Origin: Escherichia phage LHE71
Strand: one strand, 5' to 3'
Sequence record: OP455115
DNA length: 50,158 bases
A program made the translations under genes and the position numbers. The number at the start of each line of letters is the position of its first letter. Position 1 is the first letter of the stretch. Positions 19 through 43,484 of this stretch are shown here, piece after piece. The notes beneath the pieces were generated by a model. It made no database searches. It had not been told where the DNA came from and saw only the letters and a list, made by a program, of their open reading frames with translations.

Positions 19-33
19 TAACATTTAGTGCTA
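19..33. promoter_or_regulatory. Palindromic intergenic motif instance (TAACATTTAGTGCTA)
   Basis: Matches recurring 15-bp inverted repeat TAGCA(A/C)-N3-(G/T)TGCTA seen about 20 times in intergenic DNA. Confidence 0.35.
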
Positions 34-53
34 TTTTACCATATTGCAGACAT

Positions 54-75
54 AAAAAAACCCGCCGAAGCGGGT
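54..75 (-). terminator. Rho-independent terminator
   Basis: Stem CCCGC/GCGGG with 4-nt loop, followed by a 7-T run on the minus strand, immediately 3' of the 85..312 gene. Confidence 0.55.
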
Positions 76-84
76 TAGTGTTTA

Positions 85-312
85 TCACGACAATCGTCGC
101 TTAATTCCTTTAGGGTGGGTCTGAGCTTTAGAGTAGCAGTGAGCAAGGTCGCCAGTCATTTCCCATTGGTCCTTCTTGGCTGAGTAGGTAAGCCATACGC
201 CAGTTTTATCCTTAGCGTCCATCGCAATTGCTGCCGCAACAAGTGCGAAGCCAGCAAACAAACCAGCACCAAAAATAACGATACCAGCAAGAATCAATAA
301 AAAAATGGTCAT
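85..312 (-). CDS. Small membrane protein, unknown function
   Basis: 75-aa ORF, SD AAGGAG upstream, N-terminal hydrophobic segment. Confidence 0.55.
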   Translation of the reverse strand: MTIFLLILAGIVIFGAGLFAGFALVAAAIAMDAKDKTGVWLTYSAKKDQWEMTGDLAHCYSKAQTHPKGIKRRLS

Positions 313-313
313 G

Positions 314-499
314 TTAAATCTCCTTGATTAATTCAATGTTTATTTTGTGGGTGTCAAGATTAGCTCCAGAAAGTTTCTTTGCTTTCGTGATGGCTTCTGC
401 CTGACTGGTTGCAGATAATTCAGCTTCGAAAGATTGTTTGCACGACTGGCAAAACATACCCATCTTTCGAATGATTAATTTAACTTTGAATCGCTTCAT
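314..499 (-). CDS. Hypothetical protein
   Basis: 61-aa ORF tightly packed in the minus-strand early operon. Confidence 0.45.
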   Translation of the reverse strand: MKRFKVKLIIRKMGMFCQSCKQSFEAELSATSQAEAITKAKKLSGANLDTHKINIELIKEI

Positions 500-641
500 C
501 TTCCTGCGCCTTAATCATAACGCCAGCAATGCGACCAATTACAGCCTCGCCAGGATTTAATCGCTTTTTATAACGAGTGGTTTCACCGTTGCGAGTTACT
601 TTAATTTCAATTTTGATTGATTCGTCTTTAGTGTTTTGCAT
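480..641 (-). CDS. Hypothetical small protein (about 53 aa)
   Basis: ORF absent from the supplied track (below its size cutoff); ATG with AAGGGG-like SD; overlaps the next gene start by about 20 nt. Confidence 0.3.
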   Translation of the reverse strand: MQNTKDESIKIEIKVTRNGETTRYKKRLNPGEAVIGRIAGVMIKAQEDEAIQS

Positions 642-805
642 TATGCAATCCCCTTGAATTGTTGCCGCTTACGGGTCTGCGGCGTTGCTTAACCACTATG
701 CAACCGAGCTTGTTAGCTGGAAGAGTGAGAATCGTCTCACGCGTTGCGCTTCATTGCGCCTCGTCTGTCTACGGGATTAATACTATCACCGCTCAGGGAC
801 GTAGG

Positions 806-1009
806 TCAATCATTAATTTCAAATTGGCCCTTAGTAATATCCTGCGGGTAATCAACCTCATGCAGGTTTCCATCATCGCCGTACGCATATACGAGTCTAT
901 TTGCTTTATTTACTTTTTCAACATCGTACAAGCACCCCGCTGAGAAAGCATCGCTATTGCGTGACGTGATGCATCGAACCTGATCGCCTTTCTTTGGTAA
1001 ATTAGCCAT
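806..1009 (-). CDS. Hypothetical protein, member of small paralogous domain family
   Basis: 67 aa; carries the VRCITS...LYDV...DDGN pattern shared with 4233..4871, 12582..12998 and 16401..16577. Confidence 0.5.
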   Translation of the reverse strand: MANLPKKGDQVRCITSRNSDAFSAGCLYDVEKVNKANRLVYAYGDDGNLHEVDYPQDITKGQFEIND

Positions 1010-1239
1010 TATTCGTAATCCCCTTCTTTGTTACCTACGCGCCCGGCAATATACCCGGCAGTCCAGACAAATTTGTAGCGATCGATGAGTAATTCGACCT
1101 TTTTGTGGTGAGCAGAAATAACGTCAATCATGATCTTGTCGTTTTTCCGATCTTCTTTTTTCATGCCACTGACGAATTTATTTAATTCCTTCGCCGCGCG
1201 CTTTACTACGTTCCATTCCGCTTCACTTAAACCGAACAT
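1009..1239 (-). CDS. Hypothetical protein
   Basis: 76-aa ORF, start overlaps upstream stop. Confidence 0.5.
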   Translation of the reverse strand: MFGLSEAEWNVVKRAAKELNKFVSGMKKEDRKNDKIMIDVISAHHKKVELLIDRYKFVWTAGYIAGRVGNKEGDYE

Positions 1240-1583
1240 TATTTACCTCTCCCAAATGAAAAATTAACACCTAAAACCTGATTGCAAACTGATTCCATGT
1301 ATCGCAACTGGTATTGAGCAACCTTTGAAGGACTTAATTCATCGGCAAATAAATCATCAACATTGATTTCTTTTTTATGCTTGCGCTTCCATGCCTTGAT
1401 AATGTTTGGCAAGATGCGCTCGCTTTTCCATGCTGCAAACTCAGCTTGATTAGTTGATGCAGGCGTAAGTTGCTTTTCAATCTGGTTTAGCAACTCATCG
1501 GTTGCTCCTTTTACGTGCAATTGATCGCTGATAGCATCAAGGATTTCACGAGCTTGCTTCTCTGACAGGTTAATAGTAATCAT
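1239..1583 (-). CDS. Hypothetical protein
   Basis: 114-aa ORF, overlapping start/stop with neighbours. Confidence 0.5.
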   Translation of the reverse strand: MITINLSEKQAREILDAISDQLHVKGATDELLNQIEKQLTPASTNQAEFAAWKSERILPNIIKAWKRKHKKEINVDDLFADELSPSKVAQYQLRYMESVCNQVLGVNFSFGRGK

Positions 1584-1789
1584 GCCTCTTCTCCTTCATC
1601 TTCGATCGGTGTAAAAAACAGAGTGTTCACTGCCGGGTTATAATAAACTCCGTCGTCATAGTCGCTTTCTTTCACTTTAATGAAAACGCCGCAACCGTCA
1701 TGCATGAAATCACCGTTATCAGTATGAACGAGTTCGAATACTTCAGAAGTTTTAGTGCAAGTGAAAAACTTATCAGTTGATACCATCAT
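1580..1789 (-). CDS. Hypothetical protein
   Basis: 69-aa ORF directly downstream of a promoter-like module. Confidence 0.5.
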   Translation of the reverse strand: MMVSTDKFFTCTKTSEVFELVHTDNGDFMHDGCGVFIKVKESDYDDGVYYNPAVNTLFFTPIEDEGEEA

Positions 1790-1849
1790 TTCTATTTTCT
1801 CTCTTCGTTGTCGATGAGGTAACTATATCAAATCACCCCACCGACGTTT

Positions 1850-1864
1850 TAGCAATTAGTGCTA
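1850..1864. promoter_or_regulatory. Palindromic intergenic motif instance (TAGCAATTAGTGCTA)
   Basis: 15-bp inverted repeat; on the minus strand followed after 22 nt by TATAGT and a conserved leader. Confidence 0.45.
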
Positions 1865-2434
1865 TTTATTGATGAACGTAGCGGCTATGTGCTGAGCGGT
1901 AATTTCTGGATGACCTTCTATAGCAAAGAAATCACACTCCTGATAACCATTAACCCCGATCATATCGTCCAGATAAATATAATCACGGCTGTCGTTGTCA
2001 AAGTTGCAGCCTTTGCGATGGATTCGGCATAGCTTGACCTGGATATCACCTTCAATCATCTGCAATACCTCATCCTTGAATCCTCCATCTGTAAATACCG
2101 ACAGAGAATCTGACTCTTTTACCTTGCATTCCGCTCGCATACCGAAAAATCGATTGCCAAATTGCGGCTTGATTACCTCCTCGCTAATCCAGATCATAAA
2201 TTGCCGTGGGCTTTTACCGTTCAGGATAGATGCTGGCTCTTCTTTATATCGACGGTCCTCATACAGGAACATGAAATACTCGAAATTAGCCTCACCCAAT
2301 ATTGCTCGTGCAATCTCAAACATTGGCGCTTTGAAGCTTCGTAGCGCTACGTGATCGTAAGTGTCAGCCAGGATGCATCCGATAGTGTCTTTTCCAGCGC
2401 CTGGTGCACCGTTTAAAATGATAGCTGTTTTCAT
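1862..2434 (-). CDS. P-loop kinase, deoxynucleoside monophosphate kinase-like
   Basis: Walker A GAPGAGKDT near N-terminus and LNGKSP motif; resembles phage dNMP kinases from memory. Confidence 0.55.
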   Translation of the reverse strand: MKTAIILNGAPGAGKDTIGCILADTYDHVALRSFKAPMFEIARAILGEANFEYFMFLYEDRRYKEEPASILNGKSPRQFMIWISEEVIKPQFGNRFFGMRAECKVKESDSLSVFTDGGFKDEVLQMIEGDIQVKLCRIHRKGCNFDNDSRDYIYLDDMIGVNGYQECDFFAIEGHPEITAQHIAATFINK

Positions 2435-2435
2435 G

Positions 2436-2546
2436 TTAGTATCTCCCTAAAAATAATTTTGCCACATTGATGATGGTGTGATTGATGATTAACAGTATAA
2501 TAACCGTTAATACCGGATGCGCTGCAATAAATTCGTACATGTTCAT
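2436..2546 (-). CDS. Small hydrophobic peptide (36 aa)
   Basis: ORF absent from the supplied track (below its size cutoff); ATGA overlap with the HAD gene stop; predicted single TM segment. Confidence 0.35.
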   Translation of the reverse strand: MNMYEFIAAHPVLTVIILLIINHTIINVAKLFLGRY

Positions 2547-3076
2547 TCATCTACTCCGTGAGATTTTAAATGATCGTGGACGTTATCGCCATAGTCAACT
2601 ACAGCATACGTAGTTATTCCAAGCGATCGGAATAATGGAATAATTTGCGGTGAGTCATCCCAAGCTGCCAGAATGTTATCAACGCCGATCGCGCGCACCG
2701 CCTCTTCTTTCATTACCGTGTCTTTGCGGTTGTCGGTATGCGGCCTCATGACTAAGTAATCATATCTTGCGCCGTGATGCTTAAGCCATAACTCAGATGC
2801 GTAACGCACCTCATCGCTTCTCCCGGTTAAAATGATCACATGATAACCAGCTGCAAACATAGAGTTCATCACTTCAATCGTACTCTGGATTGGGTTATCA
2901 AATATTGCCGCGCGGTTAAACTCAGACCAGCTTTCAGTCAAGTGCAAATCCTTTGTCGGTAGCAGGTGAAGTCGCTTTGAGCCATCACTCAGCGTTCCGT
3001 CAAAGTCAAAGATTGCTACGCGGCGCGTGCCGAGAAACAGGTTGATAGTCTGACCCCAAATGGTGACTTTATCCAT
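2543..3076 (-). CDS. HAD-superfamily phosphatase
   Basis: HAD motif I FDFDGTL (DxDxT) near N-terminus; 177 aa. Confidence 0.6.
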   Translation of the reverse strand: MDKVTIWGQTINLFLGTRRVAIFDFDGTLSDGSKRLHLLPTKDLHLTESWSEFNRAAIFDNPIQSTIEVMNSMFAAGYHVIILTGRSDEVRYASELWLKHHGARYDYLVMRPHTDNRKDTVMKEEAVRAIGVDNILAAWDDSPQIIPLFRSLGITTYAVVDYGDNVHDHLKSHGVDE

Positions 3077-3279
3077 TACGCTTTCTCCTGTACGCGAATG
3101 ATTTTGATGGTTAATTCTTCTTCAACAATTTTGTAGCCGGATGATTCAAATTTACTCTCACGAGTCTGATTGCATGAATCAATAACTACCTGGCTATTCT
3201 GAATATCGTCAGCCATGCCGATTAGCATGCTAACGATCTGCGTTCTCGTTTCGTTGCTCATTCCGGTAATAGTTTTCAT
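3076..3279 (-). CDS. Hypothetical protein
   Basis: 67-aa ORF downstream of a promoter-like module. Confidence 0.5.
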   Translation of the reverse strand: MKTITGMSNETRTQIVSMLIGMADDIQNSQVVIDSCNQTRESKFESSGYKIVEEELTIKIIRVQEKA

Positions 3280-3346
3280 ATTGATTCCTCTGATTGGTTG
3301 CTTAACTCAACGAAGGGCATTCTATCAAATGCCCTTGAGCAAGTTT

Positions 3347-3361
3347 TAGCAATTCGTGTTA
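3347..3361. promoter_or_regulatory. Palindromic intergenic motif instance (TAGCAATTCGTGTTA)
   Basis: Inverted repeat; 22 nt to TAGAAT with TGn extension on the minus strand. Confidence 0.45.
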
Positions 3362-3808
3362 TTACCAGTAATCGACCTCGTAGTCGGCCCAAGCGTCAAA
3401 ATCACTTTGGCAGAATGTGCCGCTATAATTTTCCATAATTTCATCGATCAGGAAGTAGCATGATTCGCCGTTACGATAGAAGTATGAATCTGCAACGTTG
3501 CGCGCCCAGCGCCCGGCGTCCTTCTTACTCATCTTCCAGCGCTTCATTGCGATTTTCTTGAATGCACGCACAACACGTTTGCGGATCTTGATATGCTTGT
3601 ACACCGCGTTGCAGCCGTAAGCCATATATTCATTATTACCAATATTCTGCATGATGTACGGATTAACGTCTTTTGACGTAATCATCAGATCGCCATCGCC
3701 GCGACGCGCATCATAAATGCTTGCTGTCATGTAGTGGCCTTTGAACATTCCAATGCCGTGCAGAGTGTATTCATTATTAGGTGTGTCAATGCAAATTAAG
3801 TGTTTCAT
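3362..3808 (-). CDS. Hypothetical protein
   Basis: Start moved to internal Met MKHLICID, which has SD GAGGAA; the longer ORF start lacks an SD. Confidence 0.5.
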   Translation of the reverse strand: MKHLICIDTPNNEYTLHGIGMFKGHYMTASIYDARRGDGDLMITSKDVNPYIMQNIGNNEYMAYGCNAVYKHIKIRKRVVRAFKKIAMKRWKMSKKDAGRWARNVADSYFYRNGESCYFLIDEIMENYSGTFCQSDFDAWADYEVDYW

Positions 3809-3865
3809 GAGTGATTCCTCGTTTGTTGGTGTAGGGGAATCATAGCGCATTCCCCTTGATAGGTT

Positions 3866-4084
3866 TTAGCAATTCGTGCTATTCGTTTTAATAGTGATGC
3901 AAAAATAATTTTTTAAGCACGTCACCACGCGCGCTGAATCGACTTGTGGAAGCCTTAAAATTTCATGGACCAGTTGCACTGGCGACACCTCAGATTTGTA
4001 GTAGTGTGCGATTCTGGAGGTGTTTGGGCGCATTCCTTCCACTGCGTCGCGTGCTGCATCTTCTGCTGTCATGATAGTAGCCAT
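3866..4084 (-). CDS. Hypothetical protein
   Basis: 72-aa ORF with AAGGGTG SD; its 3' end runs into the palindromic motif. Confidence 0.4.
   Translation of the reverse strand: MATIMTAEDAARDAVEGMRPNTSRIAHYYKSEVSPVQLVHEILRLPQVDSARVVTCLKNYFCITIKTNSTNC
3867..3881. promoter_or_regulatory. Palindromic intergenic motif instance (TAGCAATTCGTGCTA)
   Basis: Inverted repeat; 22 nt to TATGAT on the minus strand, with -10 inside a hairpin loop. Confidence 0.45.
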
Positions 4085-4179
4085 AAAACACCCTTAAGAG
4101 ATAATGTCAGGACCAGGAGGCAAAATAGCAACTCCTGAAATGATGGCGGCTCGTTATTCCAGTTAGTGAAGTCTGGCAT
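4072..4179 (-). CDS. Small hydrophobic peptide (35 aa), speculative
   Basis: ORF absent from the supplied track (below its size cutoff); SD GGAG 9 nt upstream of ATG; hydrophobic; overlaps next gene start. Confidence 0.25.
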
Positions 4180-4190
4180 AGTTCTTTCTC

Positions 4191-4225
4191 CAAAAGAAAG
4201 GGGAACCGTTCAGAGCCGATTCCCC
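4191..4225 (-). terminator. Candidate rho-independent terminator
   Basis: Stem GGGGAA/TTCCCC with 14-nt loop followed by a T-rich tract on the minus strand, after the 4233..4871 gene. Confidence 0.4.
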
Positions 4226-4232
4226 ATTAGCA

Positions 4233-4871
4233 TTACATGATGAAAAGCAGCGAAATAGCAGCGACCAGGAGAACAAGCGAGGCGGCAAGATTGAATAAAT
4301 CCACCTTCTCTTTAAACTTCAGCGCTGGCTTGTGGTCAACTTCCGACGGCTTGACGTTATGGATCTTGTTAGCTGCAATCTTGCCGTTAACGCAGAAAGT
4401 GCTCTTACGCTTCTTGCCGAACGTTGCGAACTTAGTGCCGCCGCTGTTCCAACGAAGACCTTCGCCGTTGTGGGTTACGGTAGCAATGCGGTGACGGCCC
4501 GTGTCGTCGGTCAGCGCTACAGTGTGCTTTGCGTGCTCAGTAGGCACGTCGTAGATTTTGCCAACGGTAAATTTTTTGGTGTTATCACTGATACATTCAA
4601 ATTTCATAAATTTTACCTCTTTATTATGCAGTTGGTTGATTGCTTCGATTACGTCGTTAAATTTAACACCATCCACGATTCGATGGAAGATATATTTTGA
4701 ACTACCGCCATAAGGCAGGAAAATTTCCTGATATTCGTGACGCCTGACAACGTTCACATTGCATCCGTTCTCATCAGTAATGATAAAACTATCATCATTT
4801 ACTCGCGCACCTTTGTAAGTTTTGCCCCACTTGAAACCAGATCCGCTACTCGATACACATTCAAATTTCAT
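4233..4871 (-). CDS. Membrane-anchored protein with two tandem copies of the small paralogous domain
   Basis: Internal repeat MKFEC(V/I)S...GK(T/I)Y twice; C-terminal hydrophobic anchor LAASLVLLVAAISLLFIM. Confidence 0.55.
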   Translation of the reverse strand: MKFECVSSSGSGFKWGKTYKGARVNDDSFIITDENGCNVNVVRRHEYQEIFLPYGGSSKYIFHRIVDGVKFNDVIEAINQLHNKEVKFMKFECISDNTKKFTVGKIYDVPTEHAKHTVALTDDTGRHRIATVTHNGEGLRWNSGGTKFATFGKKRKSTFCVNGKIAANKIHNVKPSEVDHKPALKFKEKVDLFNLAASLVLLVAAISLLFIM

Positions 4872-5155
4872 GGTTTAATGATCCTGTAAGGTTTGATTGA
4901 TAACATCACGTATTGCGTGAAGTCGCATTCTTGATCGTCATAGCCGCGATTGATGTATGGCGTCACGTCGGTAACATCGGACACCCTGGCATGTACTTCC
5001 CATCCGGTAAACTCACCGCGATCGAACTCGCATAGCTCAAGGATATCTCCAAGCTGGAATTTTCGGTCATTGATGCGGAACTCCGCTGTTTTGTTCCCGT
5101 TCATTACACCGATGAAATGTACCGGGGCGATTTTTAACTTATGAGTTTTGCTCAT
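4868..5155 (-). CDS. ASCH/DUF3850-like PUA-fold protein
   Basis: 95 aa; HKLKI...F...G.KT.E.R.NDR.FQ.GD.L pattern typical of DUF3850 from memory. Confidence 0.5.
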   Translation of the reverse strand: MSKTHKLKIAPVHFIGVMNGNKTAEFRINDRKFQLGDILELCEFDRGEFTGWEVHARVSDVTDVTPYINRGYDDQECDFTQYVMLSIKPYRIIKP

Positions 5156-5173
5156 CTTTCTTTACCTCGAATG

Positions 5174-5356
5174 TCACGTTCCAGAATTTATTGCCTCATG
5201 AATGATAGATACGTCCTGAGACGTGAGTTCGTGCAATGCGTGCCCGATAATCTCCATTCGGTCATTCGGCGCCATTCCACGAAGTGATTCACGTATGCGC
5301 GATGCCTTGTCGTAAATCTGCCATTGGGTGAGTCGTGTAGCCATAGCTGATTCCAT
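5174..5356 (-). CDS. Hypothetical protein
   Basis: 60-aa ORF with protein-like composition; preferred over the overlapping 5188..5382 frame. Confidence 0.4.
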   Translation of the reverse strand: MESAMATRLTQWQIYDKASRIRESLRGMAPNDRMEIIGHALHELTSQDVSIIHEAINSGT

Positions 5357-5378
5357 GATGAGTTAACTCGAATGTCTC

Positions 5379-5591
5379 TCATTGATTTTCTGCCTCTTCC
5401 GCCGCCAGGATAAGCGCCGCCGCTAATTTGCGAGCCGCGTCAGGTGAGTATTGCATCAGTGTTTGGCCATCTGCGTAACCCTCAGGATCGAAGTCCAGGT
5501 TGACAACATTACCACGAACGGTTCCCATCGTGACGCTGACCTCTGCTTGGTCAAAGTTAACATCGTCAATACGTACAGTTTCCATAATCAT
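5379..5591 (-). CDS. Hypothetical acidic protein
   Basis: 70-aa ORF downstream of a promoter-like module. Confidence 0.5.
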   Translation of the reverse strand: MIMETVRIDDVNFDQAEVSVTMGTVRGNVVNLDFDPEGYADGQTLMQYSPDAARKLAAALILAAEEAENQ

Positions 5592-5643
5592 TTCCTCTTC
5601 GTTGTTGATATGGCAATCATAGCTGACTACCCGATTTATTGTT

Positions 5644-5658
5644 TAGCAATTCGTGCTA
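5644..5658. promoter_or_regulatory. Palindromic intergenic motif instance (TAGCAATTCGTGCTA)
   Basis: Inverted repeat; 22 nt to TATGAT on the minus strand. Confidence 0.45.
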
Positions 5659-5722
5659 TTTAATAACTTCTTGATGCGATTGCGATAAAACTGCATTATG
5701 TGCTCATTGTGCCAATTGCTCA

Positions 5723-6220
5723 TTATTTCACCTCGTAGCGTACAAGCGTTCCGCGCTTAATGCTGATTTCACCTGATACCGTCTTGTTCTTAAATCCGCC
5801 GTAATGCAACAGGAGAATCACCACATCATCGTGTACCTCAATAGTTTTAGGAGTGGCGGTAATATCGATCCATGATTCGCTATCAAGTTGGACACCCTTT
5901 AGCGTCGCGCTCAATGGCATGTTCTCGATCTGAGTGCACTGTAGCGATGGCTTGATTTCTGGCTTTGCGCTATGAAAGATGGCTCGGCCAGCTTTCCAAC
6001 CAGCTTTCCAGCCAGGACCAACATACTCAACATAATATGGAAGAGATGGGATGTTATCAGGGTTGTGATTGTTATGAAGCTCAATGAGATTGCCAACGAT
6101 AGACGGATGGCACTCATTGAATGACGAATCTGTTGCACGGTCTTTGCTATGGCAGGTTATTTTCCCGCAGCTAATAGTGTTAAAAACCACAGGGAATTTA
6201 ATCTCGTTTAATTTCAACAT
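5723..6220 (-). CDS. Hypothetical Cys/His-rich protein
   Basis: 165-aa ORF next to the DpdA-like/YhhQ-like pair; N-terminal C-x4-CH...CH cluster; no family recognised. Confidence 0.5.
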   Translation of the reverse strand: MLKLNEIKFPVVFNTISCGKITCHSKDRATDSSFNECHPSIVGNLIELHNNHNPDNIPSLPYYVEYVGPGWKAGWKAGRAIFHSAKPEIKPSLQCTQIENMPLSATLKGVQLDSESWIDITATPKTIEVHDDVVILLLHYGGFKNKTVSGEISIKRGTLVRYEVK

Positions 6221-6287
6221 AATGATTTCCTCTTATTGGTTGCTCTGCTTCAATAAGGACACTATAACAAATGTCCTTGCGGAAGGT

Positions 6288-7115
6288 TTAGCAATTCGTG
6301 CTATTCCACTCGCTAATTTTCGGAGGCTTTACAGATTCAATGCAGTTCTTCAATATCGCACACCTTTCGGCAAGTATGTCTGATTTGCTGCCACCTTTGG
6401 AAAGGCATTGATCTACAGCTTGCTTAACGTCATCAGTATCAATCCACTTATCCTTGTGGATACTCCTCCTGCAAGCCTCAATTGTCACTACTTTATTTAT
6501 GGCAAGGTACTTAGGAACGTTGCAAGCCAGGTTAGTGCTATCTGCTGAGTTTAGAGGGTAGTTACCTAAAACTCTTCCATCAAGCATCCTTAATCCATGC
6601 AGCTTCACGTCAACCTGTGATTCTTTAACTGCTGAGAAAGCCTCGCTTATTCTTTGCTTCCACTTAGCGGATCTGACTGTTGCAAATTCACCAGAAGAAC
6701 CCATGCATACCCAATCCCATTTTTCACACAGACTTATCAGCCTACTGATTGGCTCATGCATATGCCACACCGGGGCGGCCTTGCTTTTAAGATCTGACGG
6801 CAGTTGAGATATGAGCTTATCATTATCCTCCGCGCTTCCTGTTATATCATCAGGGATAACAAAGAATCTCAATTTAGGATTATCAAACCAGTCAGGAAGA
6901 AAGTTGAAATAAAACTCCCTCCAGTCCTGAACCTTTCCGCTCTTCCACTTTGAGAATGCCCCATTATCTATGCATACCGTCTCAGCCACATCGAAGGCTA
7001 GCTTTATCTGGTCTGGTCGCTCAAAGGATACGAACGCACCACTTCCACGGTGCGCAATTCGTGCAATCCTTCCCTTATCTCCCCATATTGGAGATCCGTG
7101 AAAGTGAATTGTCAT
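6288..7115 (-). CDS. Alpha/beta enzyme, candidate tRNA-guanine-transglycosylase-like DNA-modification enzyme (DpdA-like)
   Basis: 275 aa with alternating strand/helix pattern; IDNGAF resembles the TGT DSGGFQ motif; ATGA-coupled to the upstream YhhQ-like gene. Function is inference. Confidence 0.4.
   Translation of the reverse strand: MTIHFHGSPIWGDKGRIARIAHRGSGAFVSFERPDQIKLAFDVAETVCIDNGAFSKWKSGKVQDWREFYFNFLPDWFDNPKLRFFVIPDDITGSAEDNDKLISQLPSDLKSKAAPVWHMHEPISRLISLCEKWDWVCMGSSGEFATVRSAKWKQRISEAFSAVKESQVDVKLHGLRMLDGRVLGNYPLNSADSTNLACNVPKYLAINKVVTIEACRRSIHKDKWIDTDDVKQAVDQCLSKGGSKSDILAERCAILKNCIESVKPPKISEWNSTNC
6289..6303. promoter_or_regulatory. Palindromic intergenic motif instance (TAGCAATTCGTGCTA)
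   Basis: Inverted repeat; 22 nt to TGtTATAGT (extended -10) inside a hairpin loop on the minus strand. Confidence 0.45.
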
Positions 7116-7591
7116 AGTTTAAATTTCCTCATGATAGCTATGATTATAAATGCGCCAACTGTCTTAGCTGCGAATTGTGCCAATGAAACATCAATCATTA
7201 CCGTTCCGAATGCTATCATCGGGAATGCTATTGAGTCAATCGCAGCCGACACTGTATTTGCGGGAATGGATTTACTGTAGAAATCACCACGCTTGAATTT
7301 GAACGTTATAGCGCTGCCTGTGCCAGCCAGCATTACCGATGACACTGAGGCGATCGCTATCATCCCTGCGTCTGGATCTATCAAAACGGTAGCAATACCT
7401 GCTGAAAGGCAAGCAATCATAGAATGCCAGAAACCAAATTTGTGCTGTATCTTATCCCTGATAACCATATCTGCCGATATGATTACGAGCGCATTAATCG
7501 GAGTGGCCCACACACCGAAATATGCAACCGACAGGTTTGCTGAAACATACAGCAAAACGAACAATGCAACCATTACTGATAACTTACGCAT
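7112..7591 (-). CDS. Multi-pass membrane protein, YhhQ/queuosine-precursor-transporter-like
   Basis: 159 aa, several TM helices; motifs SANL...W, SAD, NTVSAAIDSIAF..IAFG line up with recalled E. coli YhhQ motifs. Confidence 0.45.
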   Translation of the reverse strand: MRKLSVMVALFVLLYVSANLSVAYFGVWATPINALVIISADMVIRDKIQHKFGFWHSMIACLSAGIATVLIDPDAGMIAIASVSSVMLAGTGSAITFKFKRGDFYSKSIPANTVSAAIDSIAFPMIAFGTVMIDVSLAQFAAKTVGAFIIIAIMRKFKL

Positions 7592-7712
7592 ACTGGCTCT
7601 CCTGAGAAAATTGGTATAATTTGGATATTCGGTCTTACCTGCCTGATTCTGTTTACGGTTGATTCGTCACTTAGAGGATAAAAAACACCATTTACTAGCC
7701 ACCCTATCCTAG

Positions 7713-7883
7713 TCATTCGTCAGACTCTCCAATATATTTAGCCTCTTTCCATTGAGAGTATGCATCTTGCTCGCTGAACCCGTAGCCAGTAAAGCCACCA
7801 CCTTGACACATGAATCGCTTAAATTTCATGATTCCTTTGTAGCTGTAGCCACGGTCGGTGATTTTGCATTCTTCGTTAATCAT
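7713..7883 (-). CDS. Small hypothetical protein (56 aa)
   Basis: ORF absent from the supplied track (below its size cutoff); SD GAGGAAA upstream of ATG; directly downstream of a promoter-like module. Confidence 0.4.
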   Translation of the reverse strand: MINEECKITDRGYSYKGIMKFKRFMCQGGGFTGYGFSEQDAYSQWKEAKYIGESDE

Positions 7884-7942
7884 CTTCGTTTCCTCGCTCG
7901 TTGTCGATGGGATAACTATACCAGGTTATCCCGATCCAGTTT

Positions 7943-7957
7943 TAACAAAAAGTGCTA
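7943..7957. promoter_or_regulatory. Palindromic intergenic motif instance (TAACAAAAAGTGCTA)
   Basis: Inverted repeat; 22 nt to TGgTATAGT then leader TTATCCCATCGACAACGAG on the minus strand. Confidence 0.45.
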
Positions 7958-8278
7958 CTCTACGATGAACTCAACATTTACCGGGGTCCACTCTTCCATC
8001 CTGGGGATTGAGAGATTTTCCACCTCGCACATATTCCCCTCAACCTTGACAAGTTTTAATTTTTGGTTATTCACCTTCTGCATTCTCATCACGAGGTATC
8101 TTGCTTTCTCGTTTATGGTGCGTTTATCCACGCCTTTTGTGAAGTACATGGGGCCAACAGTGTCGAGGTTTATTTTGATTGACCGCTTACCAATCAGTGC
8201 ATCAGCTATTACCTGAATGTTTGCGTTCTGCTTTGCGTATGCGTAGCGGCCCTCTTCTGTTGTTACGTGTTCAAACAT
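7955..8278 (-). CDS. Hypothetical protein
   Basis: Start set at ATG 8278, which has SD GGAGGA 6 nt upstream. Confidence 0.5.
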   Translation of the reverse strand: MFEHVTTEEGRYAYAKQNANIQVIADALIGKRSIKINLDTVGPMYFTKGVDKRTINEKARYLVMRMQKVNNQKLKLVKVEGNMCEVENLSIPRMEEWTPVNVEFIVE

Positions 8279-8290
8279 AATCACTCCTCC

Positions 8291-8866
8291 TTACAGTCCA
8301 CATTTTTCTATATGCGCTTTCATCTGGCGAACCAGGTCGCGCACAGTGCTTACAGTCACATCACCTTGCTCAATGTCATCAATATCAGGAGTGAAAGAAT
8401 CAAGGCAGTCAGCCAGGCTAACTTTTTTCCGGCTGCGGCGCTTCTTCACCGGAACCTCTTCGTCACTCACCGAGATAGTAACGACTCGCAACTTCTCATC
8501 GTTCATGGTCACGCTAACCTTGACAGATTTGCCGATCTTGGAGAAGTGGCGCGATACGATCGGGGTGATGAATGAGGATTTAAACTTCTCGTTAATCTCT
8601 TCAGTCTTCCCTAACAGCCAGGACTCAGCATATCCGCTAACGGCATCGTCATCAGCGTCAGGAACTGACTTTCTCACTGCTGCCTCAGCCATCTGAGTAG
8701 CATCGAATGTGAACTCGGTATTCTCGCCATCACCATAAAGCTGGTCGCAAGCCGCCCGGATAACATCAGTCACCTTCGCCTCCTGGCGCTGGTTAACGGT
8801 CACGCCAGCTTTCTCGTAAGCTGCCTGGATTGCTGCCTGAACTGCATCTGATTGGTAAGAACTCAT
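8291..8866 (-). CDS. Hypothetical acidic protein, first gene of leftward early arm
   Basis: Start set at internal Met MSSYQ with SD AAGGAG; the longer ORF N-terminus has no SD. Confidence 0.55.
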   Translation of the reverse strand: MSSYQSDAVQAAIQAAYEKAGVTVNQRQEAKVTDVIRAACDQLYGDGENTEFTFDATQMAEAAVRKSVPDADDDAVSGYAESWLLGKTEEINEKFKSSFITPIVSRHFSKIGKSVKVSVTMNDEKLRVVTISVSDEEVPVKKRRSRKKVSLADCLDSFTPDIDDIEQGDVTVSTVRDLVRQMKAHIEKCGL

Positions 8867-8981
8867 AGCTTTCTCCTTAGTTTCAATATACACAATAATT
8901 AACGCGTAACAGCGTGTCTCTGATTGCAGTGTTACACGTCGACCCGCTTGTGTCAATGCTTACAGGCCGATTTTAAGTGTG

Positions 8982-9008
8982 GTTAATCGTGTTAATCGTG
9001 TTAATCGC
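8982..9008. repeat. Tandem 9-bp repeat (GTTAATCGT x3)
   Basis: Three direct copies in the divergent control region. Confidence 0.6.
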
Positions 9009-9120
9009 TTTTCCCATATAAATATGAGCCGATAAAACTACTGTATATATAAACATGAATATCATAATCAGAGCATCCAACGATTAACATAGTAGACACG
9101 CTATACAACCATGTTACAGA

Positions 9121-9196
9121 TAATATCATCTATATATATAAATAAAAAAAATACTTATATATTATATATATACATATATCTATATGTATATTATAA
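9121..9196. repeat. AT-rich (TA)n tract
   Basis: About 75 bp of near-pure A/T with TATATATA runs in the divergent intergenic region. Confidence 0.6.
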
Positions 9197-9216
9197 GGCG
9201 TAATTTGGCGTAATTT
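9197..9216. repeat. Tandem 10-bp repeat (GGCGTAATTT x2)
   Basis: Two perfect direct copies. Confidence 0.55.
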
Positions 9217-9285
9217 TGTCTACAATTGCGATTCAGGCAAATAGTATACAACTGTTAACACAAAATCAATTGTAATCGTAATCGA

Positions 9286-9300
9286 TAGCACGTTTTGCTA
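9286..9300. promoter_or_regulatory. Palindromic intergenic motif instance (TAGCACGTTTTGCTA)
   Basis: Inverted repeat in the control region; no obvious -10 at the usual 22-nt spacing. Confidence 0.35.
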
Positions 9301-9490
9301 AAAATGGAGGTGACTACCGGGCGAACCGGGTAACACTAATTCCTCCCTCTCACAATCATTGCATTCTAAGCAACAATCACATCAACAGTTGCACACCATG
9401 CAACAATCACATTTCATCATTCGCAATCAATCACAATCAAAATTATTCCAGATATTCCAGTATTGATGGAATAATGAGCAACTATTTGAA

Positions 9491-9505
9491 TAGCATTTTT
9501 TGCAA
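9491..9505. promoter_or_regulatory. Palindromic motif of rightward early promoter module
   Basis: TAGCATTTTTTGCAA, then 22 nt, then TATGAT (9528..9533), conserved leader, SD GAGGAAG, ATG at 9568. Confidence 0.5.
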
Positions 9506-9567
9506 AGCATCAGCCAGGTGAATCGGGTATGATTCATCTCATCAACCAATCAGTAGAGGAAGCAGCA

Positions 9568-9693
9568 ATGAGAGTTAAACAGATTTGTAGTCAGTGTGCT
9601 GGTCGTGGTTTTACTCTAGTCCCGTTATTCACTGGAGTCTGGACAATGCAGCGAATCACGTGTCCGGCCTGCAACGGTCAGGGTAAGCGATAA
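9568..9693 (+). CDS. Small zinc-ribbon protein (41 aa) with two CxxCxGxG motifs
   Basis: ORF absent from the supplied track (below its size cutoff); SD GAGGAAG 6 nt upstream; CSQCAGRG and CPACNGQG match the DnaJ-type zinc-finger repeat. Confidence 0.45.
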   Translation: MRVKQICSQCAGRGFTLVPLFTGVWTMQRITCPACNGQGKR

Positions 9694-9716
9694 GGTCAAT
9701 CAGGAGAATGCAACAA

Positions 9717-10423
9717 ATGAAATTAATCTGGTCACTATTTGACGGTTCAGGTCTTGCTGGTCATGAGCTGGCAAAGCAAGGTCACAAGGTGATGTGCTTC
9801 AACTTTGACGGAGCCGATCACGGTGATTACGCAAAGTACAATGCCAGAGTCGAGCATCCGAACATTGAGTATGTGAACGTCTTCATTGATGAGAAGTTCG
9901 AACGTGATGCTATCGCTGGCGTGTACGGAAAGCCGGATTTTATTATGGCCTTCCCGCCGTGCACTGACCTGGCTGTTAGTGCCGCCGCCGCCTCTTTGCC
10001 AGCAAGCGTGAACGTGATCCGTTATTCCAGGAGAAGGCTGTTGCCACCGCAAGGATTGCTGCGAACATTGGCGAGGCGCTTGGTGTTACTTACATCATTG
10101 AGAATCCGGTGAGCGTCCTGTCGTCTGCGTGGAGAAAACCAAATCACTCCTTCAATCCCTGGGAGTATGGCGGCTATCTTCCCGAGAATGACGTGCATCC
10201 CTGGTTCCCGATGTATATTGCGCCGCGAGATGCTTACCCGAAGAAGACTTGTCTGTGGACCTCTGACGATTTTGTCATGCCAAAAAGGAAACCTGTAAGA
10301 CTGCCTGACGGGTACTCTGCACAGCAAAACAAGCTGGGCGGCAAGTCTGCCAAAACGAAGCTGATACGATCCCTGTCGCCGCGTGGATTTTTCAAAGCGA
10401 TCGCAAATAGCACTTTTTGTTAA
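9717..10423 (+). CDS. DNA (cytosine-5)-methyltransferase-like gene interrupted by a -1 frameshift at a GCC repeat
   Basis: N-terminal frame has motif I-like LFDGSGLAG and motif IV-like FPPCTDLAVS; downstream frame has RDPLF and IIENPV (motif V/VI-like); frames switch within 9980..9992. Confidence 0.4.
10408..10422. promoter_or_regulatory. Palindromic motif of promoter module
   Basis: TAGCACTTTTTGTTA, then 22 nt, then CATAAT (10445..10450) and leader TACCTCATCGAAACGAG. Confidence 0.5.
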
Positions 10424-10482
10424 AACTCGAACGATATGATTTGGCATAATTACCTCATCGAAACGAGATTGAGGAAAACAAA

Positions 10483-10668
10483 ATGGCACGTCGCATCACT
10501 AAAGACCTTAAAGTTCTGAACAAAGAAAACGTAGTTAAAATTCTGGTTATTTGGGGTTACAACGAAGAGTCAGCAAAGCAGAAGGTCGAGGCTGGTTATG
10601 ACCTGGCTATCAAGGCAATGCCTAACGACGACGCTAAAGGTATTGCAAATTACGTATCTTTCTTCTAA
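10483..10668 (+). CDS. Hypothetical protein
   Basis: 61-aa ORF with SD GAGGAAAA. Confidence 0.5.
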   Translation: MARRITKDLKVLNKENVVKILVIWGYNEESAKQKVEAGYDLAIKAMPNDDAKGIANYVSFF

Positions 10669-10683
10669 TTAACAGGCCAGTAA

Positions 10684-10869
10684 ATGAAAACAAAATTAGT
10701 TCATAAATCAGAAATCAAGATCGGCGATACCGTGATTCACAACGGAGAGCTTAAAACTGTTGGCAAGGAGTCAATAACCAACGATGAATTTATGGGTTTG
10801 TTGTTGTTCGGGGACTCCTATCGACTTGGTTACAAAATGGTTGAGCTTGTTGAAGATGTAAAATTCTAA
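10684..10869 (+). CDS. Hypothetical protein
   Basis: 61-aa ORF; KOW-like GDTVIHNGELKTVG pattern. Confidence 0.5.
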   Translation: MKTKLVHKSEIKIGDTVIHNGELKTVGKESITNDEFMGLLLFGDSYRLGYKMVELVEDVKF

Positions 10870-10870
10870 A

Positions 10871-10885
10871 TAGCACTTTTTGCTA
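10871..10885. promoter_or_regulatory. Palindromic motif of promoter module
   Basis: TAGCACTTTTTGCTA, then 22 nt, then CATAGT inside a GGGAG/CTCCC hairpin, then conserved leader. Confidence 0.5.
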
Positions 10886-10944
10886 AACGAAAATGCGGGA
10901 GGGCTGCCATAGTTCTCCCATCAACAGAAAACGAGGCAATCACC

Positions 10945-11316
10945 ATGTTTAAACAATTCGTAGACCTGGACTTCTCAGCCAGCACAGCAATCCAGACTGA
11001 CGAGAAAGAGAACGTAGCGATCGATAACATTGCGCGCAAGATTTACAACAAGCAAGAGAGGGCAGTGAGAGTCGCTCTAAGCGCTTATTACGGTGTAAGT
11101 GATGCAATGGAGTGCGTGAACCGAGTAACCCGCGTGGTGGACCGTTTGGGCGTGTCTCGTTTCGTTGATAACGACACTGGCGAGACAATCATTCAGCTTA
11201 ATAATCCATCTATGCGTACCGAGCTTGGAAATATTGCATTATGGGGCGTGGCTAACTACTCAATCACTGTAAACTCCTGCATTGCGGATCGTGTTAAGGA
11301 GGCATTGTATGAGTGA
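10945..11316 (+). CDS. Hypothetical protein
   Basis: 123-aa ORF with SD. Confidence 0.5.
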   Translation: MFKQFVDLDFSASTAIQTDEKENVAIDNIARKIYNKQERAVRVALSAYYGVSDAMECVNRVTRVVDRLGVSRFVDNDTGETIIQLNNPSMRTELGNIALWGVANYSITVNSCIADRVKEALYE

Positions 11317-11509
11317 TAATATCTACCGCGTGGTTGCGATCTCACGCAAGACGCAGAAGAGCGTGATCGCTTACATGGGTAGTAGCGCCATTGAAGCTAC
11401 GGACGCCTTCGAATCATTGAAGAACAACGAGGGATTTATGAACACGTTCCTCGTTCGACTTGAGCGTCTCGAACCTGTTATCATTGATGAGGCGCGAAAG
11501 CTATCCTGA
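11309..11509 (+). CDS. Hypothetical protein
   Basis: Start at MSDNIYRV with SD AAGGAGG; overlaps upstream stop. Confidence 0.5.
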   Translation: MSDNIYRVVAISRKTQKSVIAYMGSSAIEATDAFESLKNNEGFMNTFLVRLERLEPVIIDEARKLS

Positions 11510-11525
11510 CTGGTTAGGGGGAATA

Positions 11526-11846: not shown

Positions 11847-11986
11847 TTTATATTCACACTTTCTATACTGGCAAATTTAACAGCGTAAAAAATGTTCGCG
11901 TTTACGATAGCCACCAAAAAGCAATGATGCAGAAAGTAGTTCTAGGTGGCACAATAAAAGAGTGCAAAGTAATTTCTGAGTACTAA
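11843..11986 (+). CDS. Small hypothetical protein (47 aa)
   Basis: ORF absent from the supplied track (below its size cutoff); ATGA overlap with upstream stop. Confidence 0.3.
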   Translation: MIYIHTFYTGKFNSVKNVRVYDSHQKAMMQKVVLGGTIKECKVISEY

Positions 11987-12501: not shown

Positions 12502-12503
12502 AT

Positions 12504-35762: not shown

Positions 35763-35778
35763 CTTTTGTCACTAAGTG

Positions 35779-36132
35779 CTATTGCATAGATGTAAACTGC
35801 TCCATAAACGTTACGTTAATTTCCATCACGTCTCGTGATACTGGTTTAGCTCCCAGGCTGTTAGGCTTAACAACCCATATCCCGATCTTCCCGTCCGGCG
35901 GCATCCATGCGAACGGCTTAATGCGGTGAGAATCGCAGAAGTCGTAAACAGCCATGAAATCTTCCCCGGCATAGACAACTGAATACTCGCGTCGAGTGGT
36001 GTTAAATCCAGACGATGCAAGCTGCATGTAGCCATTACCAAACTGGATGGAGCGGTCGTTATTGGTAGTGGTAAGGGAGCCACCGCCCCCTTGAACCTGC
36101 GTACACCAACCGAAAGTGTCAAGTGTCGCCAT
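35779..36132 (-). CDS. Minor tail protein M-like
   Basis: 117 aa; position between tape measure and L. Confidence 0.65.
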   Translation of the reverse strand: MATLDTFGWCTQVQGGGGSLTTTNNDRSIQFGNGYMQLASSGFNTTRREYSVVYAGEDFMAVYDFCDSHRIKPFAWMPPDGKIGIWVVKPNSLGAKPVSRDVMEINVTFMEQFTSMQ

Positions 36133-39681: not shown

Positions 39682-39703
39682 GATATTTCTCCTGATTGGT
39701 TAA

Positions 39704-39718
39704 TGGCACTTTTTGTTA
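39704..39718. promoter_or_regulatory. Palindromic motif instance upstream of the chaperone gene
   Basis: TGGCACTTTTTGTTA about 20 nt upstream of the SD. Confidence 0.4.
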
Positions 39719-39754
39719 AAAGATAATAGTGCAAAGTTGATACGATGATTTTAC

Positions 39755-42072: not shown

Positions 42073-42085
42073 AATTTACCTCCAT

Positions 42086-42112
42086 AAAAAAAAGGCGCTA
42101 CATGAGCGCCTT
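42086..42112 (-). terminator. Intra-operon terminator/attenuator hairpin
   Basis: Stem AAGGCGCT/AGCGCCTT followed by 8-T run on the minus strand, just upstream of the next SD. Confidence 0.45.
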
Positions 42113-42117
42113 GATGA

Positions 42118-42405
42118 TTAATATTCGCCGCCGTCTTCAAGCTCTTTAACGCTTTTGCTATCCCACGGATCGGGCTTCGTGATTTTTGCCATTTCAGCGC
42201 GGATTTTTCGGTTGGTGGCACTGTCGTCTTTTACTTCGATTTCTTCGCGAGCAATCAAGCAACGCAGCCCAGGCAATTCAAGTACGGATGCCGGGAGTGT
42301 CACCTCTTCATCTGGAAGAACCTTTGCGAATGAGCCATCTTCAAGACGGAACATCTGAAGAGCTACACCAACGTTTACGATAACAACAGTTTTCTCTTTA
42401 GCCAT
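42118..42405 (-). CDS. Hypothetical structural protein
   Basis: 95-aa ORF downstream of the capsid gene. Confidence 0.45.
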   Translation of the reverse strand: MAKEKTVVIVNVGVALQMFRLEDGSFAKVLPDEEVTLPASVLELPGLRCLIAREEIEVKDDSATNRKIRAEMAKITKPDPWDSKSVKELEDGGEY

Positions 42406-42420
42406 TTTGATTTCTCCAAT

Positions 42421-42447
42421 AAAAAAGGGACTAACTAAGTTAGCCCC
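42421..42447 (-). terminator. Terminator/attenuator after major capsid gene
   Basis: Imperfect stem GGGACTAAC/GTTAGCCC followed by 6-T run on the minus strand. Confidence 0.45.
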
Positions 42448-42454
42448 TATAATA

Positions 42455-43414
42455 TTACACGCCAGTGATTAAGACAATAGTCATCGGGCGATAAATTGTA
42501 AGACCAGTACACTTAGAGGTGCAAGGCACTTTAAAGTGAAGGTCTTTCGGCTGCGCTGGCAGCATGTTAAACGCTTCCGGGATCTCGATGGACATATTCA
42601 TCGGATTCTTTTCGTACACCAGCACGCCTTTAGTTCCAGCGCCGTCGATATCTTCAAGCTCTGCGATAGAGTCGATTTCGATACCCGCGTTCTGAGACTT
42701 AAAATAGTCCAGATAAGACATGGTAGTTTCAGGCATACGGATCGCAAGAACCTTACGCATGGACGGCGGAATCAGGATGTTGGTTGCACGATGCTGACCG
42801 CGCGTAATCGTCTCGATGGTTTCGATCGCCTGAGTCAGTTCAGCCTCTGCCGTTTCCGGTTTCTGAGTTGCGCCATCCATCCACTTACCGGAGGTAATTT
42901 TGGTGATGTTCGGATGGTTGAACACGGACACGATCTTGTGCGGCGCAGAACCTTTAAACACCAGGCGGTTAACCAGTTGATCATGAGCTAACTGACACGC
43001 GCTCGCCTTGCGAGTTGACAGCGGACGACCAGTTGCCTGACCTGCTTTGATTTCGTCGATTGAGATCAGAAACGCATTACCCAAACGGAACACTTTGCCG
43101 AACTCAGAAGTACCCAGGGCATCAACAAGCGGCAGGTCGTCGGTGTAGTCAGCGATAATCTGCGCAGTGCCAACCTTATCAAAGGTCATGTATTCGAACG
43201 TCTTGTCAGTAGGAGAAAGATCGGTAGTAACCGGGAATACGCGTAGAGCGGAGCCTACCGGGTAGTCTTCTTCATAGGACTGGCTTTTGATGCGGTGTAG
43301 TTCCTGAGCGGTCCAGATACCCATCGTTGCGGCTGCATCCTGTTTTACGCCAGCCTGGATCAGATACATTTCAACATTGCTTTTATCTGCTTCATCAAAT
43401 TTTTTAGTGGTCAT
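42455..43414 (-). CDS. Major capsid protein
   Basis: 319 aa; SD AAGGAGAAG; position between decoration-like genes and neck genes. Confidence 0.7.
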   Translation of the reverse strand: MTTKKFDEADKSNVEMYLIQAGVKQDAAATMGIWTAQELHRIKSQSYEEDYPVGSALRVFPVTTDLSPTDKTFEYMTFDKVGTAQIIADYTDDLPLVDALGTSEFGKVFRLGNAFLISIDEIKAGQATGRPLSTRKASACQLAHDQLVNRLVFKGSAPHKIVSVFNHPNITKITSGKWMDGATQKPETAEAELTQAIETIETITRGQHRATNILIPPSMRKVLAIRMPETTMSYLDYFKSQNAGIEIDSIAELEDIDGAGTKGVLVYEKNPMNMSIEIPEAFNMLPAQPKDLHFKVPCTSKCTGLTIYRPMTIVLITGV

Positions 43415-43434
43415 GATTACTTCTCCTTAGTTAA

Positions 43435-43462
43435 TAAAAAAGCCGTGATTATGTTCACGGCT
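43435..43462 (-). terminator. Hairpin plus T-run upstream of the capsid gene
   Basis: Stem AGCCGTGA/TCACGGCT, with CATAAT in the loop, followed by TTTTTT on the minus strand. Confidence 0.4.
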
Positions 43463-43469
43463 TCAATAA

Positions 43470-43484
43470 TAGCACTTTTTGTTA
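43470..43484. promoter_or_regulatory. Palindromic motif instance upstream of the capsid gene
   Basis: TAGCACTTTTTGTTA adjacent to the hairpin containing CATAAT. Confidence 0.45.

Follow-up and report, generated by a model that had tools for sequence, protein, structure and literature searches.

A 21-nt direct repeat, aaATAGCACnnnTTGnTAAAA, was described in the 2024 re-annotation of phage TLS in 18 intergenic copies running along transcription, about 76 nt before start codons, and was also noted in T1, Rtp and Rogue1; its function was listed as an open question, and only three sigma-70-like promoters were predicted in TLS (PMC11447400). The same element recurs as a box between the genes of Escherichia phage LHE71 (OP455115), whose sequence of 50,158 nt was analysed at full length and is referred to here as the window. 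The repeat is already known; the TLS paper gives neither a fixed distance to a −10 hexamer, nor an identity with the marbox, nor reverse copies at late promoters.

Class II sites of the mar/sox/rob regulon lie in forward orientation, cluster near −41 and are without a recognisable −35 (PMC10268841). The MarA consensus of the Grainger laboratory is GCANNWWNTGNNAAA (gcannwwntgnnaaa; PMC12052159), helices 3 and 6 of MarA and RamA read CGTG-7-TTT (PMC8811837), and the soxbox has GCAC as its A site and CAAA as its B site (PMC9638938). The class II promoter of micF, taken from MG1655, consists of ACAGCACTGAATGTCAAAAC, 18 bp and TAGAAT, with +1 eight nt later, and the mar site of the same strain reads ATGCCACGTTTTGCTAAATC in reverse complement. 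The distance rule from marbox to −10 at class II sites is 18–19 bp, and the classic consensus, AYnGCACnnWnnRYYAAAY, reportedly goes back to Martin et al. in 1999.

Repeated units of promoter plus stem-loop between small early open reading frames (ORFs) are likewise known from T4-type phages as PeSLs, which probably keep transcription units insulated from one another and may favour the shuffling of modules (PMC2839356, PMC4122927). In PeSLs the promoter is of the normal −35/−10 sigma-70 type (TTGACA-N17-TATAAT or a variant), or a Mot box is present, whereas the modules of LHE71 have a marbox instead: promoter and stem-loop between small ORFs were found in the modules, but a standard −35/−10 sigma-70 promoter was not.

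The repeated box and its phase to the −10 hexamer

By megablast, positions 19000–27000 of the window matched 119 phage records, with about 91–92 % identity to the Shigella phages S2_02, Sfin-1 and Shfl1 (Tunavirus, Drexlerviridae), and by this sequence evidence LHE71 is a T1-like phage of the Drexlerviridae. The pooled comparison set comprised about 15 related genomes (T1, Klebsiella phage Sin4, Sfin-1 and fragments of about 12 relatives from IMG/VR) and contained 378 unique exact boxes; 236 unique sites were used for the asymmetry profile, 260 copies for the leader and predicted +1, and 247 unique modules for folding.

The preliminary description, made from the letters of the window, had reported a promoter-like module repeated about 20 times around an inverted repeat and had called for motif counts as a check. 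The motif TAGCAM-N3-KTGCTA was found nine times exactly in the window against 0.00 expected, and 30 times with ≤2 mismatches against 6.8 expected; box copies numbered about 25 in total, compared with about one expected by chance, and the enrichment extended across related phages. In 17 gene-proximal modules a −10-like hexamer lay 22 nt after TTGCTA (21 nt in one). These modules ran leftward (− strand) at 1864, 3361, 3881, 5658, 6303, 7957, 16651, 18639, 19662, 22656 and 27211, and rightward (+ strand) at 9491, 10408, 10871, 11987, 12503 and 13003. There were in addition two weaker copies (18307, − strand; 23107, + strand), four reverse or antisense copies (24196, 39704, 43470, and 22656 viewed from the + strand) and three orphan boxes (15–34, 9285–9304 and 35763–35782). 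When the box is read as TAGCAC-N3-TTGCTA, all 17 gene-proximal modules point toward the downstream gene.

The fixed 22-nt geometry held equally outside the window, as TAnnnT occurred exactly 22 nt from the box in 221 of the 378 boxes and at no other offset more than 24 times. The consensus of the −10 was TATART, and the TGn previously remarked upon was frequent in the pooled set, with G at −14 in 189 and T at −15 in 101 of 236 copies. TTGCTA had been judged too distant to serve as a −35, and we likewise rejected it, a 22-nt spacer being too long; the six bases that precede the −10 by 17 nt are AAAACG, and positions −35 to −30 read AAAACn, without a recognisable −35 hexamer. An A stood exactly 7 nt after the −10 hexamer, preceded by C, in 226 of 260 copies and is the predicted +1. 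The conserved leader of the earlier account was also recovered, its consensus in the pooled set being tacCtC before this point and ATCgAAAc.AAa..aggA from it. Relative to the predicted start the centre of the site falls at about −40.5, the class II activator position that had been proposed. In the window the start codon lay 69–84 nt downstream of the box's 5′ end, with the leader and a Shine–Dalgarno (SD) sequence between. The stop codon of the upstream gene often overlaps the 5′ end of the box (as TAA-TAG, or as the TAG of TAGCAC; for example 1862–1864), so that the box is packed against the preceding ORF.

One element of the preliminary description, the reading of the box as a palindrome, did not survive. 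An asymmetry profile was built from a symmetric seed (TAGCA-N5-TGCTA, ≤1 mismatch) with orientation fixed by the −10 alone. Position 6 was C in 224 of the 236 sites, but its symmetry partner, position 10, was T in 229; G3 was invariant, but its partner, position 13, was C or T (159/74). The flanks also differed (AA upstream versus AAA(a/c) downstream), around a middle of K-W-W. Equal constraint on two half-sites, as at dimeric operators of the Cro/CI type, was not found, and the element is an asymmetric 20-mer, ATAGCAC-KWW-TTGYTAAAAC, rather than a functional two-fold palindrome. Other known elements were considered and rejected: a sigma-54 promoter (TGGCAC-N5-TTGC), in which GG and GC elements lie 10 bp apart, as the spacing here is N3 and the first element has AG, not GG; an UP element, given the invariant G, C, C and G positions of the core and its extension to −31; and a T4 MotA middle promoter (TGCTT near −30, 11–13 bp from the −10), as TTGCTA lies 22 nt from the −10.

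This asymmetric 20-mer agreed with the Escherichia coli marbox at every informative position. Exact matches to GCANNWWNTGNNAAA numbered 20 in the window against 1.09 expected, 20 in T1 and 14 in Sin4, with ≤1.0 in shuffled sequences. When up to two mismatches were allowed, the window contained 238 matches, a density similar to that of E. coli (about 192 per 50 kb), and the excess in the phage is therefore a distinct class of perfect sites. The classic consensus gave 18 matches in the window at ≤1 mismatch, compared with 0.92 expected. Where the phage box varies, the marbox is degenerate (W at position 10 in 235 of 236 and Y at position 14 in 233 of 236), and the boxes read CAC(G/T)-N7-AAA, a spacing that helices 3 and 6 of MarA and RamA recognise.

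In the modules, ATAGCACGAATTGCTAAAAC is followed after 18 bp by TATAGT. All the sequence features of class II promoters were found: a marbox match in forward orientation, overlap with the −35 position, no −35 hexamer and a canonical −10. With promoters such as micF, the modules share, as far as sequence alone can tell, an asymmetric forward marbox of 20 bp whose A site is GCAC and whose B site is YAAA, placed 18 bp before the −10 where it replaces the −35, and a canonical −10, sometimes with TG. They differ from the host promoters in number and fidelity, with about 20 exact-consensus copies in the genome of a virulent phage, whereas host sites are degenerate: the validated chromosomal sites (mar, micF, lpxC, rfaY and fumC) deviate from the consensus at one or two positions. 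Unlike host class II promoters, the modules also add a terminator-like hairpin and a conserved leader.

The short hairpin described earlier, with the −10 in its loop in many copies, was confirmed by folding: 15 of the 17 window modules folded with z ≤ −2.4, hairpins were found in 194 of 247 unique modules (median minimum free energy −12.7 kcal/mol, median z −3.0), and the stem enclosed the −10 in 136 of the 247. The sense strand was more stable than the antisense strand in 180 of 245 modules, and G·U accounted for 11 % of the pairs; the greater stability of the sense strand suggests that the structure forms in RNA, on transcripts entering the module by read-through. The hairpin spans the spacer, the −10 and the discriminator, and a transcript started at the module is without its 5′ arm. 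Several such hairpins are annotated as rho-independent terminators in the T1 record, and the module hairpin is probably a terminator or 3′-end structure; no match to any Rfam family was obtained across the whole window.

Candidate readers of the box

Perfect marbox copies at the distance seen in micF suggest that the phage probably relies on a stress regulator of its host to switch on early genes, and we consider it rather likely that the box is read by a host activator of the MarA/SoxS/Rob family. Each module would then be a class II promoter of the MarA/SoxS/Rob type built into the phage genome. A monomeric host activator (a member of this family, or RamA in Klebsiella) would bind the gene-facing box and contact RNA polymerase, with the marbox substituting for the −35 and a good −10, often with the extended −10 G at −14, following 18 bp on. 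The conserved A 7 nt beyond the hexamer would be the first base transcribed, followed by a short A/C-rich leader. In RNA reading through from upstream, the hairpin would act as a terminator or 3′-end structure, so that one module could end one transcription unit and start the next.

The hosts listed for Drexlerviridae-like records were all Enterobacteriaceae, except for 20 records labelled Campylobacter, and enterobacterial hosts encode MarA, SoxS and Rob; such hosts are the common factor of the module-bearing phages, which favours a host activator. The 20 ‘Campylobacter phage’ records (e.g. A13a and A134, 47 kb) encode a T1-type regulator with about 58 % identity and look like T1-like coliphages, and their host labels are probably wrong. 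A search of all six-frame ORFs of the window with phmmer and hmmsearch yielded no AraC/MarA homologue.

The reader suggested previously was a protein of the phage itself, the 150-amino-acid product of 22670–23122 (+ strand), a Cro/YdaS-like helix–turn–helix (HTH) protein (phrog_2856; T1 gp23 family). Its matches to P22_Cro and YdaS were sub-threshold, but it was the only recognisable HTH of the phage in a Pfam search of 14 early proteins; no solved structural homologue was found for it. That this or another early protein is a phage-encoded class II activator and binder of late-gene operators, the likeness to the marbox being coincidence or mimicry, appears unlikely to us. In the core TAGCA-N5-TGCTA the centres of the half-sites are separated by 10 bp, as is usual for HTH dimers, and the HTH gene adjoins a box and has a canonical promoter of its own, as would fit an immediate-early regulator; but the site is systematically asymmetric, and at infection the earliest promoters would be without their activator. 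The HTH gene was present in all 824 Drexlerviridae-like records found and is hence uninformative within the family. Its recognition helix varies widely between genera (NQTVQGW, LKTVWGW, PQAVEEW, HATLYEW and IQVVQQW), whereas the box is invariant.

Discrimination came from two unrelated podoviruses outside the family. Escherichia phage C130_2 (Hungariovirus, with P22-like virion genes) contained eight exact boxes, seven of them with module geometry, and Enterobacteria phage IME_EC2 (Murrayvirus) contained six exact boxes, in which box, spacing and −10 were kept although the leaders were quite different. No homologue of the HTH regulator was found in either genome (best tblastn E values 0.013 and 0.22, respectively). 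What these phages share with LHE71 is only the helicase, primase, methyltransferases, VRR-NUC, Erf and exonuclease VIII, and no recognisable DNA-binding protein was common to C130_2, IME_EC2 and the window phage. A cognate regulator present wherever the site occurs and conserved in its recognition helix was therefore not found in the HTH protein, which fits poorly as reader of the box. Both podoviruses have P22-like virion genes and a T1-like replication/recombination block (divergent primase and helicase, ExoVIII, Erf, SSB and Dam) together with marbox modules and, judged by this gene content, are a mosaic link of the Drexlerviridae with Hungariovirus and Murrayvirus.

The T4-like phage Lw1 (176 kb) carried at least four marbox modules with the T1-type leader ACACACATCGAAACGAAGGAGG before small hypothetical ORFs, two of them with a terminator hairpin inserted between the box and the −10; it looks as though promoter cassettes had moved horizontally from one phage family to another. 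Such mobility of one leader into an unrelated phage would suit an arrangement in which the box has no dedicated reader: the promoters would work by their extended −10, and the 20-mer would be kept as a recombination cassette, a DNA-bending or UP-like element, or a stoperator roadblock. Basal activity could come from the G at −14 together with a good −10 hexamer, promoter plus stem-loop between small early ORFs is found in PeSLs as well (PMC4122927), and stoperator, enhancer or UP roles were proposed by the TLS authors (PMC11447400). We nevertheless regard this explanation as improbable. Recombination cassettes need neither single-base conservation limited to the informative positions of the marbox nor a fixed 18-bp phase to the −10, and IME_EC2 keeps box, spacing and −10 but not the leader. 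The invariant G/C core, which reaches −31, is unlike an UP element. The stoperators of mycobacteriophage L5 are, like the boxes, short asymmetric sites in many copies oriented with transcription, but their ligand is the repressor of a prophage and their distance to a −10 is not fixed, whereas LHE71 is virulent and its sites are promoter-phased; no stoperator repressor was recognised in these virulent phages, though not every ORF was screened.

The exactness of the boxes also raises the question of whether they are mainly decoys, replicating phage DNA offering thousands of consensus marboxes that would soak up MarA, SoxS and Rob and so blunt the host stress response. Each genome offers 20 exact sites compared with the imperfect natural ones, and SoxS is limiting relative to its cellular sites (PMC9638938); a decoy, however, would have no need of a constant spacing to a −10 or of alignment with the direction of the genes, and we give this idea very little credence.

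Several observations weigh against activation by MarA, SoxS or Rob. T1-like phages, which are very fast, multiply well in laboratory cells that are not under stress, where little MarA or SoxS is present and a large part of Rob is reportedly sequestered. In a Keio single-knockout screen with the T1-like phage LL5, rob, marA and soxS were not recovered (PMC7229145), so that no single one of them is essential; redundancy, together with basal activity of the extended −10, could mask a dependence on them. Class II activation by this family is usually modest, as with the 2–4 fold reported for RamA (PMC8811837). Our literature search found no transcription-start or transcriptome data for the Drexlerviridae, and C130_2 and IME_EC2 share the T1-like replication module, so that a small unrecognised phage protein common to them is possible. 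The same search found no paper linking the marbox to T1-like phages.

If the host activator does read the box, a large group of virulent phages infecting E. coli and Klebsiella, including many therapy candidates, would depend on or be boosted by the multidrug-resistance regulators of their hosts. Phage growth would then be linked to antibiotic-resistance states (mar mutants and ramA over-expressers) and to gut chemistry, phage–antibiotic interactions would become predictable, and the modules would offer promoter parts that are compact and insulated and agree exactly with the marbox consensus.

Reverse copies at late promoters

At the tail-fibre promoter (24146–24197, + strand) the operator-like arrangement was as previously described, with TTGCAA (24146–24151), 17 bp, TAAAAT (24169–24174) and the 15-bp box at 24182–24196; the full reverse box (24178–24197) covers about −3 to +17, and the arrangement is conserved in T1. 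A leftward promoter at this box was considered and rejected, as its ‘−10’, TATGAG, is not conserved (TACCTG in T1), so that the copy is not a leftward promoter.

The major-head promoter (43466–43493, − strand) is canonical and strong, with TTGACG (43493–43488), 16 bp and TGcTATTAT (43471–43466). Its spacer is filled by a reverse box (43469–43488, + strand) that touches both hexamers, an arrangement conserved in T1, pSf-2 and one further lineage and degenerate in Sin4. The start predicted for this promoter, at about 43459, falls in the hairpin (43464–43439) of the terminator upstream, within its 5′ arm, so that the promoter's transcripts would escape the terminator that stops read-through. In the divergent region, the rightward regulator/primase promoter (22590–22618, + strand; TTGAAT-17-TATAAT) has a reverse box at about +13 to +32, and its −10 overlaps the −10 of the leftward helicase module; polymerase recruited by the box would therefore exclude the rightward promoter. 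A complete antisense module (39703–39746, + strand), conserved in T1, points toward the major-tail gene from between the major-tail terminator and the SD of the tape-measure chaperone, with its box at 39703–39722 and TGa-TACGAT at 39741–39746.

MarA represses promoters at which a marbox overlaps core elements, as at rob, hdeA and purA. The reverse box of the major-head promoter, lying between and across −35 and −10, resembles this arrangement; for the phage, repression would be read from position only, and the tail-fibre box sits differently, at about −3 to +17. The reverse copies could act as operators at the capsid, tail-fibre and regulator/primase promoters, the same protein occluding or opposing these canonical promoters. 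Such positions are consistent with the earlier suggestion of a single protein that could activate early genes and gate late ones, which here is an inference from position.

It seems doubtful to us, though conceivable, that a host stress regulator runs the whole temporal programme of the phage, with forward marboxes switching on about 17 early and middle promoters and reverse or antisense copies holding late genes off. MarA, SoxS or Rob would already be in the cell, and loss of the activator would bring the switch to late expression. Being Lon-labile, MarA and SoxS could disappear once host transcription is shut off; titration by hundreds of replicated genomes could have the same effect. Such a programme, which from sequence comparison appears common to unrelated virulent phages of Enterobacteriaceae (Drexlerviridae, Murrayvirus, Hungariovirus and some Lw1 cassettes), would tie phage development to gut signals such as bile salts, salicylate and oxidants.

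Individual modules, orphan boxes and gene map

According to RefSeq annotations of Sfin-1 and T1, from which the gene map was taken, small early genes occupy 1–8956 (leftward) and 9568–15055 (rightward), lysis, repair and replication genes 15177–22575 (leftward), the regulator, primase and tail fibre 22670–26002 (rightward), and recombination, tail, head and packaging genes 26031–50158 (leftward).

Among the leftward early modules, that at 1789–1865 had the box at 1846–1865 (ATAGCACTAATTGCTAAAAC), the −10 TATAGT at 1822–1827, a leader, an ATG at 1789 and a hairpin of −22.4 kcal/mol (z −6.0). In the module at 3279–3362 the box (3343–3362, ATAACAC...) had one mismatch and was followed by TGa-TAGAAT (3319–3324) and an ATG at 3279, with a hairpin of z −4.8. 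The −10 was TATGAT in the modules at 3808–3882 (box 3863–3882, −10 at 3839–3844, ATG 3808) and 5585–5659 (box 5640–5659, −10 at 5616–5621, ATG 5585/5591), and TATAGT in those at 6220–6304 (box 6285–6304, −10 at 6261–6266, ATG 6220) and 7883–7958 (box 7939–7958, −10 at 7915–7920, ATG 7883). By eye, the module at 6220–6304 had one possible compensatory stem change compared with T1.

The first rightward early gene is preceded by the module at 9490–9570 (+ strand; box 9490–9509, GCATTTTTTGCAAAG; −10 TATGAT 9528–9533; ATG 9568). Further rightward modules follow at 10407–10485 (box 10407–10426; CATAAT 10445–10450; ATG 10483), 10870–10947 (box 10870–10889; CATAGT 10908–10913; ATG 10945), 11986–12066 (box 11986–12005; ATATAT/TATATT 12024–12030; ATG 12064) and 12502–12584 (box 12502–12521; TGa-TAAAGT 12540–12545; ATG 12582; hairpin z −4.9), and at 13002–13077 before the helicase gene, which starts at about 13072 (box 13002–13021; TATCAT 13040–13045).

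On the − strand beyond these, the module at 16577–16652 (box 16633–16652; TATAGT 16609–16614; ATG 16577) had a GC hairpin in its spacer, and that at 18564–18640 (box 18621–18640; TATAGT 18597–18602) had the terminator-like hairpin CCCGGCGAAAGTCGGG, whose T1 orthologue is annotated as a terminator. The weaker module between them in the map, at 18239–18308 (box 18289–18308, ATAGCACTAATAGCGAAATA; TAGCAT 18265–18270), is conserved in T1. Leftward modules also precede the Dam methyltransferase operon (19592–19663; box 19644–19663; CATTAT 19620–19625; ATG 19592), the helicase operon (22575–22657; box 22638–22657; TATTAT 22614–22619; GTG 22575) and the Erf gene (27138–27212; box 27193–27212, ACGGCACAAATAGCTAAACA; ATG 27138), the last with TATAAT (27170–27175) at the 21-nt spacing. 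A degenerate rightward box at the end of the regulator gene (23106–23184, + strand; box 23106–23125) was followed by a terminator hairpin, TAACAT (23144–23149) and the GTG of the primase at 23182.

The orphan boxes had no −10 at the fixed distance. The late-region box (35763–35782, − strand), GCACTTAGTGACAAA, was followed by a terminator. The terS box (15–34, − strand) lies in forward orientation directly upstream of the SD of terS across the window junction and has a T1 orthologue; the window is circularly permuted, and terS (49634–50158) starts at its last base. The remaining orphan, an exact box (9285–9304) within 9285–9349 (+ strand), had no −10 at 22 nt and a long hairpin after it, and is conserved at the left end of T1. 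It is situated in an AT-rich non-coding region of about 530 nt (8960–9490) between the divergent early arms, the equivalent of which is the left end of the T1 genome. Short tandem and dispersed repeats were found in this region (GTTAATCGT two to three times, GGCGTAATTT twice, (TA)-rich blocks, and TTGCA..GCAACAATCACAT twice), and it may be origin-like or packaging-related.

In the adjoining rightward arm, two overlapping ORFs without a Pfam match (9708–10112 and 10109–10423) correspond to a single methyltransferase gene of 705 nt in Sfin-1 and may represent a frameshifted or split gene.

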